In this document: piece by piece, positions 1,757 to 60,221 of the stretch
How positions within the stretch are numbered: position 1 is the stretch's first letter
Layout: every line of letters starts with the position of its first letter
NCBI RefSeq assembly: GCF_035084215.1
Contig: NC_090363.1
Coordinates: 9,300,001 to 9,364,000, forward strand
DNA length: 64,000 bases
From: Heptranchias perlo
Taxonomy: Eukaryota
Reading direction: 5' to 3'
The notes under the pieces: model-generated
Seen by the model: the letters and a program-made list of their open reading frames with translations, nothing else
Database searches by the model: none
Told to the model about the DNA's origin: nothing
Position numbers and translations under genes: made by a program

Positions 1757-4755
1757 GGGGCCGATTTTCAGATGGCTGAGCGGCTGCGTTGGGGGCAGGG
1801 GGCTCCTAAAATGGCGGAATCCCAGAGCAGGTTCGGAGCCCGGCTCCAACTCGCTGACTTGTGGGTTCCCCAGTGACGCATTTGCGTGCACACAACTCCT
1901 GCATGTGGGACTCCCACCGACAATTAAAGCCAGCGGAATGCTGATTTAGATAGTTAGTCAGATAGTTGAGGTACTTGACAGACCTCATTGAGTGGAGATT
2001 TTGGCAGGGGTGCAATTTTGAAGGATCCTCAGCGTGTTTCCCGTGATGTAGGAAACACTCCCTGTTGGAGCAGACGTGTTTCAGCCAAAAGCCAGTGGGA
2101 GATGCAAAGGATTAATTGACAGTTGGGGGGAAAACCTCATTTATTGCAGCAGGACACTCTGTCACTTCAGACAAAGTTTTGGCTGCAACACCTTTGTCTT
2201 TTCACCCAAAGTTATTAATTTATACCCTAAACTCTGCTGTGCAAACACATTTACCTACTTTGCAGACCCCCTCAAACTCACACCATCAGGATGGGGGTGG
2301 GGGGCGCCATAGCTGCATTCATCACTTCATCCGAGGACGAGCAACATCACCGGCCTTGCCAGGCACGCCGTCCACCTCCGCCACGTGGAGCTACACAACA
2401 CAGTGCTGCGCCACAGGCACCTGCACAAAATAGTCGTGCAACTACACATACACCCACTGTAGAGTGATCCAATAAGTGGCATCATGGTGGGTGTTCATGG
2501 TGAACCTCGTGAAAGGGACTTATTACACAAGCCAGTCAAGAATGGCCAAGACGTGGCAGTAGTGGTGACAATAATAATATTTAATGTGACATTAACAAGA
2601 ATCAAATATAAATAAAAAAACATGACAAACCGTCAAACACCCTTGTGCATCCCCTTTGTGCTCACAAAACCTTATGACTACTCCTACGTGGTGCTTCCCC
2701 TGTGGCTGCAGCAGAGGTAGTGGCAGGTTGCTCTTGTTCATGCCCTGACCGATTAGATGCTTTGGGCCTACGCCCTCTGGGTTTCGGTGCCCGTGAGGGC
2801 CCCTCCAAAGACTGCTCCACCTGCACCTGTGCAGGAGCAGACTCGACCACCTGGAGAGGAGGCAGCATTGCGGGTACTGGTTGAGAGGGGGGCAACGGGT
2901 GAGACGTGGGAGCGCTTTGAGTGGCATCCCCACTTCCATGTCCCCTTTCACCATCATCCCTCCCCTGGGCCAGGCCCACATCACTCCTACCACTCTGCTG
3001 GACGACAGTTTGGAGGACATGTGTGAAGCCTTGTAAGGCCGGTGCCAGAGTATCTGCCTGCCTGTTTAAGGCGGCAGAATGTTGCTCACCTTGAGTCCGA
3101 AGGGCCGTTGTCAGGGCCTCAATAGACTCATTCGTGAGCCGTGCTTGAAGCACGATGGAGGCTAGCCTTTCCTCCATCGCAGACATTCTCGCACATACCC
3201 ACGACACTATCTCAGAGATGCCCTCACATCCCTGTGACAGTATCTCAGAGATTCCCTCCTGTATCTGTGCCATCAATCCACTCATGCAGGAGTTGGATTC
3301 CTCCATCCTCTGTGCGATTGTGGAGACTGTGCGTGGCACCTGTTCCAGCACCTCGCAAATGTGCTGCTGCCCCTCGATCATTCTCCTTTTCATGGATGGC
3401 CCCCCAGGGTCCAGCATCTGTGTCCAGCTGAGCAGAGCCTGGAGAAGAGTGCTCCCACCGACACAGACTCTCCACAGCTGCCCTTGCCACCAGTGTCTGC
3501 TCGTGCTCACATGTGTGTGGTGATTCACCATGTGCGACCCCAACTAAGTGAGGACGGGGCCCGCTGAGGTTTGTGTATCTGTGCTGGTGGATGGCTTGCT
3601 CAGATGTGATGGTGCCCCCTCAGAGGCCGGCAGCTCCTCTGAGGAATCGCCCTCCGCCGTCACAGCAGTCGCTGAAGGCCCCGTAAGAGAACAGAAGGCC
3701 ATATTAAGCATGCTGACAGATGTTGAGGTGCTGAAGATGGCAAGGCATGTTAACATCATTTGCTATTGTGAGTGCTGAATGTTAAAGTTCTGTCACGAGC
3801 CGTTTGTCGGGTGGCAGTCTCGGCGTCCCCGATGGACAGGCACTCGAGGGTGTGGCTTAGTTCCAGAGCCTCCTGCTCCGTGTCTGTGAGGACAACCAGA
3901 TGTTGCAGCCCCCCTCCGGTCTTCGCTCTCTCCCATGCATTCTGGGCTCCCTTCTCCTATAAAGGGAGAAAGTAGAGAGGTGTGAGTGAGGGATGGGTGA
4001 GGCTGACCGTGAAAGAGATGCATCAGACGGTGAGTATGAGACAGAGCCATGACATTGTATGAGGATTGGGTTGAGTGGTAGTGGTGGGATGAGTACTGGG
4101 GAGGTGAGTAAGTGCAGGTAAGTTGAGGATGAGGTTTGAGTGAGTGTGAGGAGTGATGTGATCGAGTAGTGTTGGCAGTACAGAATGAGTTGTGCGGTGG
4201 GGGCGGTGATGTGGAAGACGGAGTGTAGGGGAATGAGTAAGTGTACTCACTTTGGCTGACCTAGTTAGGTCATTGAAGCACTTCCTGCACTGGATCTAGG
4301 TGCAGGAGATGTTACTGCTGCTGGTGACCTCCTCTGCCACCTCGAGCCAGGCCTTCTTGGTGGCAGAGGCAGGCCACTTCCTCCCGTCCGCCGGGTAGAA
4401 AATCTCCCTCCTCCTCCTCACCCCATCCAGTAGGACCTGGAGTGAGGCATCAGTAAATCTGGGAGCAGCCTTTCCCCTGGTCTGCTCCATTGTACAATTT
4501 TGGTTGTTTGCTCCAGGAGCAGCATTGGAGGACTGCCCCTTTAAATAGGACTCCTCCAGCTGACAGCCTGTGATGCGGGTGCGCAGTCCGCCCGCTGCCC
4601 AGGTTGACGACGGGAAACCCGGATGCCACGGTAAGTGGCTTCAATTTACCCGCGATCGCGTGGGGAACGGACGGATTTTACTGGGCGGGTTACCCACGTG
4701 CCCAATCGCCCACCCCCCAACACCGTCATCCCTCCTCCCTGGTAATATCGGGGCC
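1757..4755. mobile_element. PIF/Harbinger DNA transposon, internally deleted (transposase lost)
   Basis: Imperfect TIRs GGGGCCGATTTT / (rc) GGCCCCGATATT, 3-bp TSD ATT on both sides (1754-1756, 4756-4758), and a Myb/SANT ORF on the - strand. Confidence 0.85.
2662..4490 (-). pseudogene. Harbinger Myb/SANT-like DNA-binding protein gene (disrupted)
   Basis: MEQTRGKAAPRFTDASLQVLLDGVRRRREIFYP...KKAWLEVAEEV...T*IQCRKCFNDLTRSAK|gtgagt (exon 4490-4251; TAG where Trp is expected). The downstream exon has a coiled-coil/Pro-rich C-terminus (ORF 3543-2662). Confidence 0.8.
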
Positions 4756-4860
4756 ATTGAGTTCAAATTGTGGAAACCAGACTTTTATTGTGGCCACAGT
4801 AAAATTCTGGTCCATATGAAAAGGTGGAAGTGTCAAATTCTGGACATGAGATCATCACAA

Positions 4861-5918
4861 TGAATATTGATCTGATTGGAGTTGTGTTGAGTATTGGTGA
4901 GCATGAATTGATCTGATTGGAGTTGTGTTGAGTATTGGTGAGCATGAATTGATCTGATTGGAGTTGTGTTGAGAATTGGTGAGTGTGAATTGATCTGATT
5001 GGAGTTGTGTTGAGAATTGGTGAGTGTGAATTGATCTGATTGGAGTTGTGTTGCGAAATGGTGAGTGTGAATTGATCTGATTGGAGTTGTGTTGAGAATT
5101 GGTGAGTGTGAATTGATCTGATTGGAGTTGTGTTGAGAATTGGTGAGTGTGAATTGATCTGATTGGAGTTGTGTTGAGTATTGGTGAGTGTGAATTGATC
5201 TGATTGGAGTTGTGTTGAGTATTGGTGAGTGTGAATTGATCTGATTGGAGTTGTGTTGAGTATTGGTGAGTGTGAATTGATCTGATTGGAGTTGTGTTGA
5301 GTATTGGTGAGTGTGAATTGATCTGATTGGAGTTGTGTTGAGTATTGGTGAGTGTGAATTGATCTGATTGGAGTTGTGTTGAGTGTTGGTGAGTGTGAAT
5401 TGATCTGATTGGAGTTGTGTTGAGTATTGGTGAGTGTGAATTGATCTGATTGGAGTTGTGTTGAGAATTGGTGAGCGTGAATTGATCTGATTGGAGTTGT
5501 GTTGAGTATTGGTGAGCATGAATTGATCTGATTGGAGTTGTGTTGAGTATTGGTGAGCATGAATTGATCTGATTGGAGTTGTGTTGAGTATTGGTGAGCA
5601 TGAATTGATCTGATTGGAGTTGTGTTGAGTATTGGTGAGTGTGAATTGATCTGATTGGAGTTGTGTTGAGTATTGGTGAGCGTGAATTGATCTGATTGGA
5701 GTTGTGTTGAGAATTGGTGAGCATGAATTGATCTGATTGGAGTTGTGTTGAGAATTGGTGAGCGTGAATTGATCTGATTGGAGTTGTGTTGAGAATTGGT
5801 GAGCGTGAATTGATCTGATTGGAGTTGTGTTGAGTATTGGTGAGTGTGAATTGATCTGACTGGAGTTGTGTTGAGAATTGGTGAGTGTGAATTGATCTGA
5901 CTGGAGTTGTGTTGAGTA
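4861..5918. repeat. 41-bp minisatellite, about 26 copies
   Basis: Unit ATTGATCTGATTGGAGTTGTGTTGAGTATTGGTGAGTGTGA; period measured 4866 to 4907. Confidence 0.97.
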
Positions 5919-6875
5919 TCATTGGGGCAGCATTGGACTCCGTTGCAGGTTGAGAGCTGTGAAGCCGACTTAATCGGGAAACCTTCAGTCACGTGAGATC
6001 CATCTCTTGCCATTGCGTCTCAAAGATCAAGGTCACCATTCTCCAAACCCTGAGATCCACTGTCTGAAAGAATCTAATGCAACAAATGTTATTTGCACTA
6101 GCAGTTCCAGTTTATAATGTGATGGTGAAATACAGATCTAATAATAATATGCAGCACATCATCATGGTTGTGGAACAAATTGGTAAAATGCAAACTTACG
6201 ACCGCCCGTATGTTTATCCCTTGTGGGTTTAAGGGCTTTTTTGTGCCCCCTTCTCGTACTTCCGAGGTCTGGGGTCTGTAATGTGGGTAGTTGGTTACAT
6301 TTACAATGAGCCTCTTTGGACAGAGGTGGCCTTCCCCTCAGAGCTGGAATGGTCCCACAGCAGTGCTGCGTCTCTGGGCTTGTTTCCTCAGCAATCTGGG
6401 TCTCCAGACTTACTCTTACTTGTGAAGGTCCCTGAGGGGACAATCTAGAGACCGCTCTGGAGCTGCTGTCATGAGGCTGAGCAGGGTCCTCGGAATGGTC
6501 TCCTGCTATCCCACTCGGAGAGCATTCCTAACGGAACCACTAAGGTCCCTAAACCCCAGAGGGAGAGTGCACCTGGCATCCTTGTAGCCCTCCGAGATGC
6601 TGCTCTAGGGAACTCAGAATCGGGTACTCATCGATCTCTCCATCCTTTCTCCCAAGCCCACTTGCTTCCAAGTGGAAAGCACTTGGTGGTCTGGAGGCCT
6701 CCTTGTAATGGGGGATGGATGCAAATGTTCCTGGATCTGCCACTGGCTCCAGGATGCACTGCATCGATGAGTAGCCCTGCCTGATGGTGCCACGGAAAAT
6801 GGAATTGGACTCAGCAACAGCCATAGCCATGTGCCTCACATTGTGTGAAGGAGGGTGCACAGCCTCTATTCTTTG

Positions 6876-9410: not shown

Positions 9411-9789
9411 AGCCACATAAGAACCATCATCGTGAGGTTCCACCCGTTTTGCGTCACAGCCCAAGTCGAATTTCAGGCCCTCTCAGTCTTAACGCAAGTG
9501 AGAACCCAACCCCTGAAAGCAGATCACAGGGAAGGAAAGGAAAAGAGGAACTTAACCTGAGAAACGAAAGAAGAAAGGTTTTCTGTGTGCGGTACCACAC
9601 GGGGTGCACTTAACAACTCAAAGGACGGGAGTTTATTCGGCATCTGTGGCCATGCCAGGCCGTCTGATGTGACGGTGCCCTGGTTACGTGTCGTGGAGAC
9701 GGCTGTTTCCAGGAACTGAGCCGGACGGTAAAATCAATACAGTGGCACCCCCTTCAGTGAGAAGGTTCATGGGCTGCTGACACCTGGGG

Positions 9790-10625
9790 TGAAGGGCAGT
9801 GGGCTGTGTGAGGAGGGCAGGGGGCTGTGTGAGGAGGGCAGGGGGCCGTGTGAGGAGGGCAGGGGGCTGTGTGAGGAGGGCAGGGGGCTGTGTGAGGAGG
9901 GCAGGGGGCCGTGTGAGGAGGGCAGGGGGCTGTGTGTGGAGGGCAGGGGGCCGTGTGAGGAGGGCGGGGGGCCGTGTGAGGAGGGCAGGGGGCCGTGTGA
10001 GGAGGGCGGGGGGCCGTGTGAGGAGGGCGGGGGGCTGTGTGAGGAGGGCAGGGGGCCGTGTGAGGAGGGCAGGGGGCTGTGTGTGGAGGGCAGGGGGCCG
10101 TGTGAGGAGGGCAGGGGGCCGTGTGAGGAGGGCAGGGGGCTGTGTGTGGAGGGCAGGGGGCCGTGTGTGGAGGGCAGGGGGCCGTGTGAGGAGGGCAGGG
10201 GGCCGTGTGAGGAGGGCAGGGGGCAGTGTGTGGAGGGCAGGGGGCCGTGTGTGGAGGGCGGGGGGCCGTGTGAGGAGGGCGGGGGGCCGTGTGAGGAGGG
10301 CGGGGGGCCGTGTGAGGAGGGCGGGGGGCCGTGTGAGGAGGGCGGGGGGCTGTGTGAGGAGGGCGGGGGGCCGTGTGAGGAGGGCGGGGGGCCGTGTGTG
10401 GAGGGCGGGGCGCCGTGTGTGGAGGGCGGGGGGCCGTGTGAGGAGGGCAGGGGGCCGTGTGAGGAGGGCGGGGCGCCGTGTGTGGAGGGCGGGGGGCCGT
10501 GTGAGGAGGGCGGGGGGCCGTGTGTGGAGGGCGGGGGGCCGTGTGAGGAGGGCGGGGGGCCGTGTGTGGAGGGCGGGGGGCCGTGTGAGGAGGGCGGGGG
10601 GCCGTGTGTGGAGGGCGGGGGCTGT
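9790..10625. repeat. 21-bp G-rich minisatellite, about 40 copies
   Basis: Unit GAGGGC(A/G)GGGGGCCGTGTG(A/T)G. Confidence 0.97.
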
Positions 10626-12085
10626 CTGTAGAGAGCAGGGACTGTCTGGTGCGGGCAGGGACTGTATGGTGCGGGCAGGGACTGTCTGGTGCGGGCAGGG
10701 ACTGTATGGTGCGGGCAGGGACTGTATGGTGCGGGCAGGGACTGTCTGGTGCGGGCAGGGACTGTATGGTGCGGGCAGGGACTGTATGGTGCGGGCAGGG
10801 ACTGTCTGGTGCGGGCAGGGACTGTCTGGTGCGGGCAGGGACTGTCTGGTGCGGGCAGGGACTGTCTGGTGCGGGCAGGGACTGTCTGTAGAGAGCAGGG
10901 ACTGTCTGGTGCGGGCAGGGACTGTATGGTGCGGGCAGGGACTGTCTGGTGTGGGCAGGGACTGTATGGTGCGGGCAGGGACTGTATGGTGCGGGCAGGG
11001 ATTGTCTGGTGCGGGCAGGGACTGTCTGGTGCGGGCAGGGACTGTATGGTGAGGGCAGGGACTGTCTGGTGCGGGCAGGGACTGTATGGTGCGGGCAGGG
11101 ACTGTCTGGTGCGGGCAGGGACTGTATGGTGCGGGCAGGGACTGTATGGTGAGGGCAGGGACTGTATGGTGCGGGCAGGGACTGTCTGGTGTGGGCAGGG
11201 ACTGTCTGGTGCGGGCAGGGACTGTATGGTGCGGGCAGGGACTGTCTGGTGCGGGCAGGGACTGTATGGTGCGGGCAGGGACTGTCTGGTGCGGGCAGGG
11301 ACTGTATGGTGCGGGCAGGGACTGTCTGGTGCGGGCAGGGACTGTCTGGTGCGGGCAGGGACTGTATGGTGCGGGCAGGGACTGTCTGGTGTGGGCAGGG
11401 ACTGTCTGGTGCGGGCAGGGACTGTATGGTGCGGGCAGGGACTGTATGGTGAGGGCAGGGACTGTCTGGTGCGGGCAGGGACTGTATGGTGCGGGCAGGG
11501 ACTGTCTGGTGCGGGCAGGGACTGTATGGTGCGGGCAGAGACTGTATGGTGAGGGCAGGGACTGTCTGGTGCGGGCAGGGACTGTATGGTGAGGGCAGGG
11601 ACTGTCTGGTGAGGGCAGGGACTGTCTGGTGCGGGCAGGGACTGTATGGTGAGGGCAGGGACTGTCTGGTGAGGGCAGGGACTGTCTGGTGCGGGCAGGG
11701 ACTGTCTGGTGCGGGCAGGGACTGTCTGGTGCGGGCAGGGACTGTATGGTGAGGGCAGGGACTGTCTGGTGAGGGCAGGGACTGTCTGGTGCGGGCAGGG
11801 ACTGTCTGGTGAGGGCAGGGACTGTATGGTGGGGGCAGGGACTGTCTGGTGAGGGCAGGGACTGTATGGTGGGGGCAGGGACTGTCTGGTGGGGGCAGGG
11901 ACTGTCTGGTGAGGGCAGGGACTGTATGGTGGGGGCAGGGACTGTCTGGTGAGGGTAGGGACTGTATGGTGGGGGCAGGGACTGTCTGGTGAGGGCAGGG
12001 ACTGTATGGTGGGGGCAGGGACTGTCTGGTGAGGGCAGGGACTGTATGGTGCGGGCAATGACTATCTGCTGCGGGCAGGGACTAT
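10626..12085. repeat. 20-bp G-rich minisatellite, about 73 copies
   Basis: Unit ACTGT(C/A)TGGTG(C/A/G)GGGCAGGG, in exact 20-bp register. Confidence 0.98.
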
Positions 12086-12454
12086 TCCTATTCAGGAATT
12101 TTTCTCGCTCGTCTCTGGAGAGCGGAGGTCAGTTTTAGAGAAGTTTCTCTCAGGACAGTTAATGGTTGGAATAAGTTCCTAGCTAAAGTTATACTGTGAC
12201 TAGTGATGTGAGAAAGTTGCCTGATGACTGTGGAGACTCCTGTTACACTACAGATCTCTCTTTCCCAGGCCAATTTTTAATATAAAGAGAGGGGGAAGGA
12301 GAGTGCACCTTCTCATAGCATTATAAAGATTCCAAACAAAGTTTTAATACTTGTCAGACTGCCTGACGTACCATCTGGTCGTGTTTAGAATGCGGTTTGA
12401 CAACGGACTGAAGCTACACTGAAGCCAGTGCATTCGCAGAGTGGCTTGAGAAAA

Positions 12455-31508: not shown

Positions 31509-31596
31509 ATGTCGGAGCGCACTATGTACGGGAGAATAAATCCCTTTAAATTCACCAATATTTTCCTTTTCATCAGTTATTTTATTTCCCTCTCCG
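31509..31596 (+). CDS. Exon 1 (signal peptide) of a single-IgV ITIM-bearing CEACAM/HEPACAM-like receptor
   Basis: ATG at 31509 opens MSERTMYGRINPFKFTNIFLFISYFISLS, with a hydrophobic leader core. It ends in a phase-1 donor G|gtaagt at 31596/31597, the typical IgSF leader-exon arrangement, and the phase matches exon 2. Confidence 0.8.
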
Positions 31597-39330: not shown

Positions 39331-39729
39331 CCTCTGGAAGCCGAGTTACTGTGAGAGTCGATCAGAGTGAAGTGAATGGGACCGTGAACCAGTCTGTCCT
39401 CCTCCCCGTCTCCTACTCCTACTCCACGCTCACACTAAAATACTCCATTTTAACGATAAAGTGGTTTTTATTCCCCAGCGATACCCCATGCGCGACACTG
39501 ACCCGATTAAACTGCTCTCTAACCCCTGACAAATCCGGTTATAACTGTTCAGATCACCAGCAAGACGGTCCTGCCTACAAGCACCGAGTCCACATCTACC
39601 CGGAGAATGGATCTTTATTGCTGCGGGATTTGCAGTCCAATGACAGCGGCGTGTATGTGATATCTGTTTCTCGCGGTGGGGAAACGGCCAGTGAAGGAAA
39701 TGTGACATTAACAGTCTATCCAGAGACAG
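39331..39729 (+). CDS. Exon 2: IgV-like N domain without canonical cysteines
   Basis: Acceptor tttgttgcag|, donor G|gtagga, phase 1-1, 399 nt. Translation ASGSRVTVRVDQSEVNGTVNQSVLLPVSY...IKW...YKHRVHIYPENGSLLLRDLQSNDSGVYVISV...GNVTLTVYPET shows V-set hallmarks (C-strand W, NGSLLL, DSGxY, TLTV). Confidence 0.93.
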
Positions 39730-40136: not shown

Positions 40137-40301
40137 CCAGTGAGTATTCTACTACCCCAAGTGTTTCAGGGTCAGCGGAAAACAGCACAACGGGCCCAGA
40201 CAAGTGGGAGAACACCCTGTATATCAATGTGTCCACTGCCGTGTGCCTCCTCATTATCATCATCACCTGCTTGTGCCTGTTGGTGATCAGGACACACAGA
40301 G
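40137..40301 (+). CDS. Exon 3: Ser/Thr stalk plus transmembrane helix
   Basis: Acceptor tttttttgcag|, donor G|gtaagt, phase 1-1, 165 nt. Encodes ASEYSTTPSVSGSAENSTTGPDKWENTLYINVSTAVCLLIIIITCLCLLVIRTHR (hydrophobic helix followed by basic stop-transfer residues). Confidence 0.92.
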
Positions 40302-42451: not shown

Positions 42452-42531
42452 GTCGTCATCCACCCCGTGATTCAGTCGTCACAGAAACACCGTCTGCTCA
42501 GCCTGAAGGAACGAGGCAAGCCTTGGCTGAG
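42452..42531 (+). CDS. Exon 4: membrane-proximal cytoplasmic exon
   Basis: Acceptor ttttaattcag|, donor GAG|gtacga, 80 nt, phase 1 to 0. Encodes GRHPPRDSVVTETPSAQPEGTRQALAE and is required to bring exon 5 into the ITIM-encoding frame. Confidence 0.75.
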
Positions 42532-44219: not shown

Positions 44220-44366
44220 GGTCAGGAATTGGTCATCAATGGTGAGGTCACGTACTCATATCTGCATTGGTCTGGGCCCATAAACACACCAGCACCAGAA
44301 CCCGACACTAGCGAGGCACCGCCTATGAATATATATGCTTTTGTGCAGAAAGTGGAGCGAAAGTGA
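44220..44366 (+). CDS. Exon 5: terminal exon with ITIM (VTYSYL) and ITIM/ITSM-like (NIYAFV) motifs
   Basis: Acceptor ccttttctgttccatacag|, phase 0. Encodes GQELVINGEVTYSYLHWSGPINTPAPEPDTSEAPPMNIYAFVQKVERK*, with TGA at 44364-44366. Confidence 0.88.
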   Translation, partial: GQELVINGEVTYSYLHWSGPINTPAPEPDTSEAPPMNIYAFVQKVERK

Positions 44367-45049
44367 AGTGCCTGAGCTGAAGCATTCGACAGGGAACTGG
44401 ATCGACCTCCTGGTCCGGAAGGAAGAGGTGGACACCGGGTATCGAGGTGGGAGAAAGGCGAGAGCCCAGATGTGACGATCGGCCCCATTTGAACGGTTAG
44501 AGGCCGTGAAACCCGTGCACTTACACGGGGGCTGCAGTGAAAGGACACGTACCGCCCATGGGACACGCTGAGGTGCGATATAGCACCGGGCATGATCATG
44601 GGGTCCCGAGCCAGCCAGCGAGCGCCATTGGTTGGCTCCTCGGAATGTAGCCGTGGCGTCAGAGCCCCATCAGCTGCGAGTTCCTGACGTCCTTCAGAAT
44701 ATTGGGGGTGGATCTTGACTTTGCGCGATGGTGTAGAATGGGTGACAGAGAGTCGGCAGCCCATCTCACGTCACTCCCCATCTTTATTTCTATTGACTTT
44801 AAGATCTGCCCCTTGGAGCGCGCCAGAATCGCAGATTTAGCGGGTTCCAGATTTGGTCACACTTCTGTTTGAGAGGGGTGGGGAGGGGAGGGTGTGCAGG
44901 GGGGGGGGGGTCCACAATGGCTGTTTCCCAGCTCTCAGCGGCTGTGTTGAAGGCGCTTCTGGTTTTGTAAAAGTTTGAATCAACTTTATGACGTATTCTT
45001 TGTACAAAAGTTTACAGTCACTGCAGCCACAGAGGGAGAGTCGTAAAAA

Positions 45050-45770
45050 CATAAGAAATAGGAGCAGGAGTAGGCCATACGGCCCCTTGAGCCTGCTCCG
45101 TCATTCAATCTAATCATGGCTGATCTTCAACCTCAACTCCACTGTCCCGCCCGATCCCCATATTCCTTGATTCCCCTAGTCTAAAAATCTACCATCTCAG
45201 CCTTGAATATACTCGATGACTGAGCATCCACAGCCCTCTGGGGTAGAGAATTCCAAAGATTCACAACCCTCTGCGTGAAGAAATTCCCCCTCATCTCAGT
45301 CTTAAATGGCCGACCCCTTATCCTGAGAACATGCCCCCTTGTTCCAGACTTGCCTGCCAGAGGAAACAACTTCTCAGCATCTACCCTGTCAAGCCCCCTC
45401 AGAATCCTCTCATTCTTCTGAACTCCAGAGAGTATGGGCCCAATCTACTTAATCTCTCCTCATAGGACAACCCTCTCATCCCAGGAATCAATCTAGTGAA
45501 TCTTTGTTGCACCCCCCTCTAAGGCAAGTGTATCCTTCCTTAGATAAGGAGACCAAAACTGTACACAATACTCCAGGTGAGGTCTCACCAAAGCCCTGCA
45601 CAATAATAGCAAGACTTCCTTACTCTTGTACTCCAACCTCCTTGCAATAAAGGCCAACATACCATTTGCCTTCCTAATTGCTTGCTGTACCGGCATGCTA
45701 ATTTTTTGTGTCTTGTACCAGGATACCCAGATCTCTCTGAACACCAACATTTAATAGTTTCTCACCATTT
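45050..45770 (-). mobile_element. CR1 3' fragment
   Basis: KANGMLAFIARRLEYKSKEVLL..RALVRPHLEYCVQFWSPYLRKD; FFTQRVVNLWNSLP. Confidence 0.92.
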
Positions 45771-48359: not shown

Positions 48360-48892
48360 GCCCTGATAATCCAGTCCATCCTACAGCCCGAGATCCTATG
48401 GTAATCCAGACCAATCCACAGCCCAGGACTCCATGGTAATCCAGTCCATCCTACACTCTGGGATCCCCTGGGAATCCAGTCCATCCTACACTCTGGGATC
48501 CCCTGGGAATCCAGTCCATCCTACACTCCGGGATCCCCTGGGAATCCAGTCCATCCTACACTCCGGGATCCCCTGGGAATCCAGTCCATCCTACACTCCG
48601 GGATCCCCTGGGAATCCAGTCCATCCTACACTCCGGGATCCCCTGGGAATCCAGTCCATCCTACACTCCGGGATCCCCTGGGAATCCAGTCCATCCTACA
48701 CTCCGGATCCCCTGGTAATCCAGTCCATCCTACACTCCGGGATCCCCTGGGAATCCAGTCCATCCTACACTCCGGGATCCCCTGGTAATCCAGTCCATCC
48801 TACACTCCGGGATCCCCTGGTAATCCAGTCCATCCTACACTCCGGGATCCCCTGGTAATCCAGTCCATCCTACACTCCGGGATCCCCTGGGA
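48360..48892. repeat. 35-bp minisatellite (also 50690-51060 on +, 47380-47600 on -)
   Basis: Unit GATCCCCTGG(G/T)AATCCAGTCCATCCTACACTCCGG; period 48481 to 48516. Confidence 0.96.
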
Positions 48893-59519: not shown

Positions 59520-59970
59520 GGCCTACCTCAAAGTTCCCTGATGAGGTGACCCTGCCCCTTTAACTGGTAAAAGTTGAGCCTGTCTGAAAGTTCATTTTTG
59601 AGGTGATACTGCCCCTTTAGCTGGTAAACGCAGGGCCTATCTGACAGCTCCCTAATGAGGTCACACTGCCCCTTTAACTGGTAAATGTGGGGCCTATCTG
59701 ACAGCTCCCTGATGAGATGACACTGCCCCTTTAACTGGTAAATGTGGGGCCTATCTGACAGTTCCCTTTTGAGGTGACACTGCCCCTTTAACTGGTAAAT
59801 GTGGGGCCTATCTGACAGCTCTCTTTTGAGGTGACACTGCCCCTTTAACTGGTAAATGTGGGGCCTATCTGACAGCTCTCTTTTGAGGTGACACTGCCCC
59901 TTTAACTGGTAAATGTGGGGCCTATCTGACAGCTCTCTTTTGAGGTGACACTGCCCCTTTAACTGGTAAA
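59520..59970. repeat. 57-bp tandem repeat, about 8 copies
   Basis: Unit GAGGTGACACTGCCCCTTTAACTGGTAAATGTGGGGCCTATCTGACAGCTCTCTTTT; period 59771 to 59828. Confidence 0.95.
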
Positions 59971-60221
59971 ACTGCTCTCATTCATTTTACAGAGATTCTA
60001 TCAACCCTGTTTTGATGAAGTCAGTAAATTCTAAAAAGGGGGGCGGGGTCACTGAGCAATGGCTGCCCCTTGTATCAGCCGCCGCATTCATGACTTCACC
60101 GGGTTAGGCTGTCGGATGGAGCTCAGTGGAAGCATCAACAGGGACAACTCTCAACTGTCTCCTAGTAACTGGTTAACAGGCCTTGGCAGAGGCCAGGGAT
60201 TAGCTCAAACCCCATCTGCCT

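Follow-up and report, generated by a model that had tools for sequence, protein, structure and literature searches.

The 147-bp exon at 44220-44366 (+) of the window, that is, of the whole 64,000-nucleotide stretch of Heptranchias perlo DNA analysed here, closes a five-exon gene for a receptor with a single IgV domain, probably the inhibitory partner in a paired-receptor family without a name, and the likeness of its cytoplasmic tail to that of CEACAM1 is probably a matter of convergence. The likeness itself is ordinary, because two-tyrosine tails with a spacing of 20-27 residues are the norm for inhibitory receptors; the interest lies in the family, which is apparently undescribed as well as unnamed. 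The parts of the gene are as follows (papers cited below as “in part” are cited from portions of their text).

31509..31596 (+): exon 1, start codon and signal peptide; 88 bp, phase 1 end, GTAAGT donor; placed by translation match and tblastn
39331..39729 (+): exon 2, IgV domain, with Cys91 and Cys102 in a long C'-C'' hairpin and seven N-glycosylation sequons; Pfam V-set, E 1.4e-8
40137..40301 (+): exon 3, Ser/Thr stalk and uncharged transmembrane helix; phase 1-1; joint 39729>40137 in 3/4 runs
42452..42531 (+): exon 4, first cytoplasmic exon, without TEHKxS; 80 bp, phase 1-0; joint 40301>42452 in 4/4 runs
44220..44366 (+): exon 5, coding part, last exon of the cytoplasmic tail, carrying both tyrosine motifs and a TGA stop; 147 bp; joint 42531>44220 in 3/4 runs
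44244..44270 (+): motif 1, E-V-T-Y256-S-Y-L-H-W, a strict ITIM with an aromatic residue at +5, judged by the orthologue motif counts
44325..44363 (+): motif 2, M-N-I-Y283-A-F-V-Q-K, a non-canonical site; orthologue pattern [IV]-Y-[AST]-x-[APSV]-[QRK]-[KR]
44367..44873 (+): likely 3' UTR, end not defined; contigs run on from the terminal exon to 44873, and the first AATAAA is at 45646

The gene structure is observed directly. The five exons translate into a 292-aa product that matches P0003 exactly, the Heptranchias perlo protein named “hepatic and glial cell adhesion molecule-like” (“HEPACAM-like”) by NCBI's automatic annotation, and three GT..AG splice joints are spanned by contigs from four runs, all of one sample, whose RNA status is our guess, none of them being recorded as RNA. 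The joint leading into the terminal exon, 42531>44220 (GT..AG), is among these; all three introns downstream of exon 2 lie within the stretch checked against the reads, and the exon 1-exon 2 junction lies outside it. Exon 4 ends in phase 0, and directly 5' of 44220 stands a pyrimidine-rich AG acceptor. An earlier note, made from the letters alone, had placed both motifs in a single phase-0 terminal exon; this is confirmed, and splicing into that exon is seen in the contigs. Since exon 3 is phase 1-1, skipping of the transmembrane exon would preserve the frame in this gene. P0007, P0014 and P0024 are annotated isoforms without a transmembrane segment in which the tail is retained.

The terminal exon translates as GQELVINGEVTYSYLHWSGPINTPAPEPDTSEAPPMNIYAFVQKVERK*, with its two tyrosines at residues 12 and 39, i.e., Y256 and Y283 of the protein, 27 residues apart; EVTYSYL, the second motif (MNIYAFV) and their spacing are thus as the earlier note had read them. 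When the 48 residues of the exon were shuffled 200,000 times, an ITIM followed by YxxI/L/V at a spacing of 18-35 appeared in 0.81% of the shuffles, and the same pair at exactly 27 in 0.045%; the 18-35 test was also passed by 3/638 pre-stop 48-codon segments of the window, the terminal exon included. From this rarity in shuffles and window segments alike, we take the motif pair to be real.

Both tyrosines are retained in all 13 shark and ray orthologues (species counted by name, Heptranchias perlo among them), at a spacing of 27 in five, 25 in one, 23 in six and 22 in one. Motif 1 is a strict ITIM in 11/13, with I/L/V at +3 in 13/13, W/L/F at +5 in 12/13, a hydrophobic residue at -2 in 11/13 and S/C at +1; its +2 position is L/Y/F/M in 12/13, most often Leu (9/13), with Tyr in Heptranchias perlo. 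The Val of EVTY is off the orthologue consensus, which is Leu. Motif 2 matches the strict ITIM or ITSM in 0/13: only Heptranchias perlo has I/L/V at +3 (Val), the other orthologues having Ala, Pro or Ser, and the constant features are instead I/V at -1, A/S/T at +1 and K/R at +5, each in 13/13. The description of the tail as “tandem ITIMs” was therefore overstated, motif 1 being an ITIM and motif 2 fitting neither an ITIM nor an ITSM in any orthologue, although the accompanying remark that motif 2 has N at -2, off the ITSM consensus, was correct. Conservation of the motifs in other sharks, proposed in the same place as a check, holds for the tyrosines and fails for the spacing of 27 and for a strict second motif. 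The Pro/Thr-rich linker is likewise present here (38% Pro+Thr) but is not conserved, ranging from 10 to 38% across the 13 orthologues, nor is the basic C-terminus of the Heptranchias perlo tail, two orthologues ending in ..DCS. In P0017 (Rhinoraja) and P0041 (Mobula hypostoma) the two-tyrosine module is tandemly duplicated, giving four tyrosines.

The tetrapod members of the family, represented by 22 rows that are not independent because 16 are birds, have a strict ITSM first in 18/22 and an ITIM/ITSM second in 17/22, with a spacing of 20 in 21/22 and Leu at +2 of motif 1 in 1/22; the SLAM-type ITSM, TxYxxV/I, occurs at neither motif in the 13 sharks and rays. Because the tetrapod order is ITSM and then ITIM/ITSM at 20, the tail is conserved as a module and not at 27. 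Human ITIM-ITSM receptors have spacings of 18-35; of the 13 values, 8 fall within 22-27 and none equals 27 (PMC8631942, Supplementary file 4, with SLAMF5 omitted and SIRPa and SLAMF6 each entered once), so that 27 is a single point within the usual range.

The ectodomain has only three cysteines, 83, 91 and 102, and the canonical B-F cysteines are missing. In the structure model (pLDDT 88.6) two cysteines flank the long C'-C'' hairpin, and this pair, Cys91/Cys102 (C61/C72 of the domain), is invariant in 22/22 shark and bird rows; the model suggests that they form a disulfide. Cys83 (window 39489-39491), the third and probably unpaired ectodomain cysteine, is found only in Heptranchias perlo at that column (11 aligned rows). 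The best structural match is the V domain of amphioxus VCBP3 (Z 17.1, rmsd 2.4 over 124 residues), with a Z about 2 above the next family; here only the fold is alike, at 19% identity, and sharing a fold with a chitin-binding protein says nothing of function. CEACAM N domains were not among the fold-search matches listed, ESM Atlas gave generic V-set clusters only, and prediction of an IgV homodimer scored 0.00, which is evidence neither for nor against a dimer.

Contigs of one sample differ from the window between 39360 and 39693, with 10 substitutions in the 399-bp IgV exon, 9/10 of them nonsynonymous; seven of the nonsynonymous ones fall on C'' and the F-G hairpin, and six variants are packed into 24 bp at the F-G hairpin. 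The ~2,500 covered non-coding bases have 2 differences (excess in the IgV exon, Fisher p 1e-7) and the 392 other coding bases, tail exon included, have 1 (p 0.011), both p values being optimistic because coverage is uneven and contigs lose variants. The excess of nonsynonymous over synonymous changes in the IgV exon is not significant (9/10, p 0.23). The variants represent either a divergent allele or a near-identical paralogue; tblastn found no second family IgV within the 64-kb window.

The range of the family and its short-tailed paralogues are likewise a matter of direct observation. Named relatives are found in sharks, rays, chimaera, coelacanth, tarpon (distant), frogs, caecilian, newt, turtles, birds and platypus, and no therian mammal is among the matches with an assigned species. 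The 127 family rows (isoforms counted, loose tail/transmembrane filter) comprise 50 with two-tyrosine tails, 34 without the pair but with an Arg in the outer transmembrane segment, 13 others and 30 without a helix; the Arg filter is loose, P0080 among the 34 being a false call and 4/50 two-tyrosine rows also tripping it. In six same-species pairs (Hemiscyllium, Chiloscyllium punctatum, Scyliorhinus canicula, Mycteria, Alca and Theristicus), the IgV domains of Tyr-tailed paralogues and of short-tailed ones, most of which have a transmembrane Arg, are 87-98% identical, while between-species comparisons give 64-67% in 5/6 and, for two bamboo-shark relatives, 85%. Of the short-tailed partners, that of Mycteria has no transmembrane Arg, and that of S. 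canicula is annotated with a longer tail from which the tyrosine pair is absent. Two further same-species pairs have IgV identities of only 27% and 42%, and a duck pair at 80% may represent isoforms from a single gene model.

This near-identity of Tyr-tailed and short-tailed IgV domains within a species is the pattern of paired receptors: near-identical ectodomains with opposite tails occur in the relatives and not within the 64-kb window, where tblastn found no activating paralogue. Homogenisation restricted to the IgV domain, through concerted evolution, has been described for Xenopus ceacam pairs (PMC5112662, in part). In members from duck and frog-type species (P0031, P0034, P0050), the family IgV is present as three to six tandem copies and IgC is absent; the duck protein bears the automatic name CEACAM5-like. 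A more distant subfamily with two IgV domains is found in lizard, turtle and shearwater (P0135, P0156, P0158, P0261); P0135 and P0158 have a transmembrane Arg, and one lizard model of this type is fused to PRY/SPRY (TRIM10-like), which hints at MHC linkage.

We believe that the receptor would work as follows. A ligand on the C'C''FG face would cluster it, a Src-family kinase would then phosphorylate Y256 and Y283, and SHP-1/SHP-2 would dock chiefly at Y256, with its hydrophobic -2, Leu +3 and aromatic +5, Y283 being a weaker or different second site. The docked phosphatase would damp activating signals, including those from the short-tailed paralogues, which may signal through an ITAM adaptor via the transmembrane Arg. 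Such an Arg couples to FcR-gamma in LILRA/GPVI/NKp46-type receptors, and receptors coupled in this way have no ITAM of their own. These phosphatase and adaptor partners, of the receptor and of the paralogues alike, are predicted from motifs. Since the N-SH2 domain of SHP2 prefers hydrophobic residues at -2, +1, +3 and +5 (PMC8007070, in part), Y256 fits at -2, +3 and +5, with the polar +1 against it; in the PD-1 context, Ser at +1 failed to recruit SHP1 (PMC8631942, in part). Bivalent SHP docking in sharks is doubtful, because motif 2 is off-consensus in 13/13 and its K/R at +5 is unlike the SHP2 N-SH2 preference.

In the main rival reading, an inhibitory receptor of FcgammaRIIB-like arrangement, Y256 would recruit SHIP and Y283 a partner with a single SH2 domain, Csk or a Crk/Abl-type adaptor. 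SHIP strongly favours Leu at +2 (PMC3418551, in part), the commonest residue there in the orthologues, and in mouse FcgammaRIIB a second tyrosine outside the ITIM stabilises SHIP through Grb2 (PMC6433993, in part); motif 2, E-T-I-Y-A in most sharks, resembles the EPIYA-type sites that bind Csk or serve as Abl substrates (PMC3561454, in part), and a spacing that drifts between 22 and 27 suits independent sites. We nevertheless regard this arrangement as unlikely: Heptranchias perlo itself has Tyr and not Leu at +2, the tetrapod members almost uniformly lack that Leu, the hydrophobic -2 and aromatic +5 are SHP features of which SHIP has no need (PMC3418551 and PMC8007070, both in part), and agreement with the Csk consensus beyond I-Y-A is presumed. 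Less probable still is an adhesion or trafficking molecule of the HEPACAM-like kind, in which the tyrosines are sorting signals (YxxL, di-leucine) with no immune-inhibitory role. The automatic annotation points that way, motif 1 is often YSLL, i.e., YxxL plus a di-leucine, and the di-leucine of the FcgammaRIIB ITIM drives endocytosis (PMC6433993, in part), but the conserved hydrophobic -2, the strict ITSM/ITIM pairs of tetrapods, the short-tailed paralogues with homogenised IgV domains and the variant-dense IgV exon are traits of immune receptors.

The last alternative is deep conservation, with the gene a receptor of the CEACAM lineage and its terminal exon derived from the same ancestor as cytoplasmic exon 3 of CEACAM1. 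The residues given for CEACAM1 in the earlier note are borne out (E490-V-T-Y493-S-T-L-N-F498 and I518-I-Y520-S-E-V-K-K-Q526; PMC8564729, in part); EVTYSxL agrees in 6/7 residues, and the aromatic +5 of motif 1 and the Lys +5 of motif 2 are common to both. In CEACAM1, too, both motifs lie in a single terminal exon (PMC2832619, in part), and CEACAM1/CEACAM6 N domains are the top three matches of a PDB profile search (E 3-6e-11). JAML, however, is nearly level (E 6e-11), the matches are confined to the generic D-G strands, and the Val in EVTY is a departure from the orthologues' Leu. The N-terminal IgV without a B-F disulfide, shared with CEACAM1, is not specific to CEACAMs because it is common to CD2/SLAM-type domains. 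CEACAM1 has three cytoplasmic exons (PMC2832619 and PMC13278318, both in part), lies at LIPE-BCL3 and, in mammals, carries TEHKxS in the first cytoplasmic exon (PMC2832619, PMC5112662 and PMC13278318, all in part); the shark gene has two cytoplasmic exons (80 + 147 bp), no TEHKxS, no IgC exons, and, across the orthologues, a last exon in which the second motif is non-canonical. The family IgV is also about 15 residues longer, with its C'-C'' Cys pair, and the family occurs in fowl, chicken and duck both carrying members; fowl are described as having no intact CEACAM genes (PMC13278318, in part).

Sharks and rays have, moreover, a separate CEACAM-like group, defined by automatic annotation labels, whose tails are mostly ITAM-like, the three inhibitory-type members all having a spacing of 24. 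In the IgV tree of 42 rows, 30 family rows separate from 12 CEACAM-like rows at 99/94; P0249, P0156, P0128 and P0054 had been left out after a long-branch warning in a 46-row tree, where a single mammalian CEACAM-type row was present, on a long branch whose placement was uncertain. On the side of the CEACAM lineage, uniting the shark orthologues with the shark CEACAM-like domains was not rejected by the AU test (p 0.108). Against it, these CEACAM-like rows score at most 47 bits on the query-family profile (166 for the query), BLASTP reaches the platypus family member P0126 at E 2e-16 over 146 aa and the shark CEACAM-like P0230 at only E 9e-7 over 48 aa with the tail unmatched, and in 9/9 species having both, the two kinds of gene lie on contigs of different listed size (one an unplaced scaffold). 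We therefore consider CEACAM1-lineage descent of the exon improbable. Of the two possibilities that the earlier note had left side by side, the evidence agrees with convergence on the usual two-tyrosine SH2-docking format, the likely source of the likeness, and agrees poorly with conservation of a CEACAM1 module; the mirror of CEACAM1-L, with its spacing of 27, is in large part a coincidence inside a common format and mostly particular to Heptranchias perlo. A distant common origin of the family and the CEACAM IgV types is likely, and orthology with CEACAM1 unlikely. In the CEACAM-like cluster (P0095, P0116, P0207-P0247) many tails have YENxP plus YxxL-x7-YxxL, and the few inhibitory-type ones have Pro at +3 of the first motif.

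Other known systems resemble the inhibitory receptor proposed here in part. PD-1, BTLA, G6b-B, VSTM4 and CD300LF also have one IgV domain, a stalk, a transmembrane helix and two tail tyrosines, 21-35 apart (PMC8631942, Supplementary file 4), but their IgV is of another type, the shark second motif lacks I/V/L at +3, and none of them is among the sequence relatives found. LILR/PIR, CHIR, CD300 and the Xenopus ceacam pairs likewise combine Tyr-tailed with short-tailed members whose ligand domains are near-identical in any one species, although their Ig domain differs from that of the shark family; the putative activating members of the family, which carry a transmembrane Arg but lack an ITAM, are in this unlike CEACAM pairs. 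SLAM/CD2 receptors have an N-terminal IgV without the canonical disulfide and give weak profile matches (E ~5e-5 to 2e-4), and tetrapod family tails begin TIYxxI/V as in SLAM, while the shark protein has neither an IgC2 domain nor an ITSM. HEPACAM and HEPACAM2 differ in having an IgV followed by IgC2 domain(s), the shark protein having a single V-set only. CD28X, of the CD28/PD-1 family, was considered because of its species distribution and rejected on motifs: the F strand of the shark IgV reads GVYVISV with no Cys, so that the YxC CDR3 motif of that family's definitions (PMC11599192, in part) is absent.

A literature search, from which subscription journals were mostly outside the scope, yielded no description of the family and no paper on the chicken member, LOC771657. 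If the family is truly undescribed, it adds an ancient paired-receptor system to the immune toolkit of jawed vertebrates; because a chicken member exists, its function is testable in chicken cells, and the automatic names “HEPACAM-like” and “CEACAM-like” given to its genes are not to be trusted. More tentatively, and with slightly less conviction than doubt, we suggest that this is an undescribed paired immune-receptor family that goes back to the earliest jawed vertebrates, and that therian mammals have lost it while sharks, rays, chimaera, coelacanth, amphibians, turtles, birds and platypus retain it; pathogens would have driven the diversification of its disulfide-stapled IgV face, and in sharks alone the second tyrosine would have been rewired so as to leave the ITIM/ITSM code. 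On the IgV tree, orthology between the shark and tetrapod clades is putative.

As to gene neighbourhood, the gull family member is merged in its gene model under TMLHE and the frog member is fused to a CRLF2/IL2RG-type domain, which together give a hint of where the family resides; the chicken and platypus members presumably lie on chromosomes 4 and 6. A neighbour gene in the window was sought by comparing 147/405 single-copy ORFs with Pfam, with three weak matches below the cut-off, none credible. Open frames at 2665-3543 and 4299-4640 (-), with no Pfam match above cut-off, resemble a Myb/SANT-type transposon accessory gene. Long tandem repeats with stop-free frames lie at 4763-6019, 9684-12128, 48370-48858 and 59528-59977, and about half of the window consists of sequence that recurs elsewhere in it, fragments resembling LINE reverse transcriptase being numerous.
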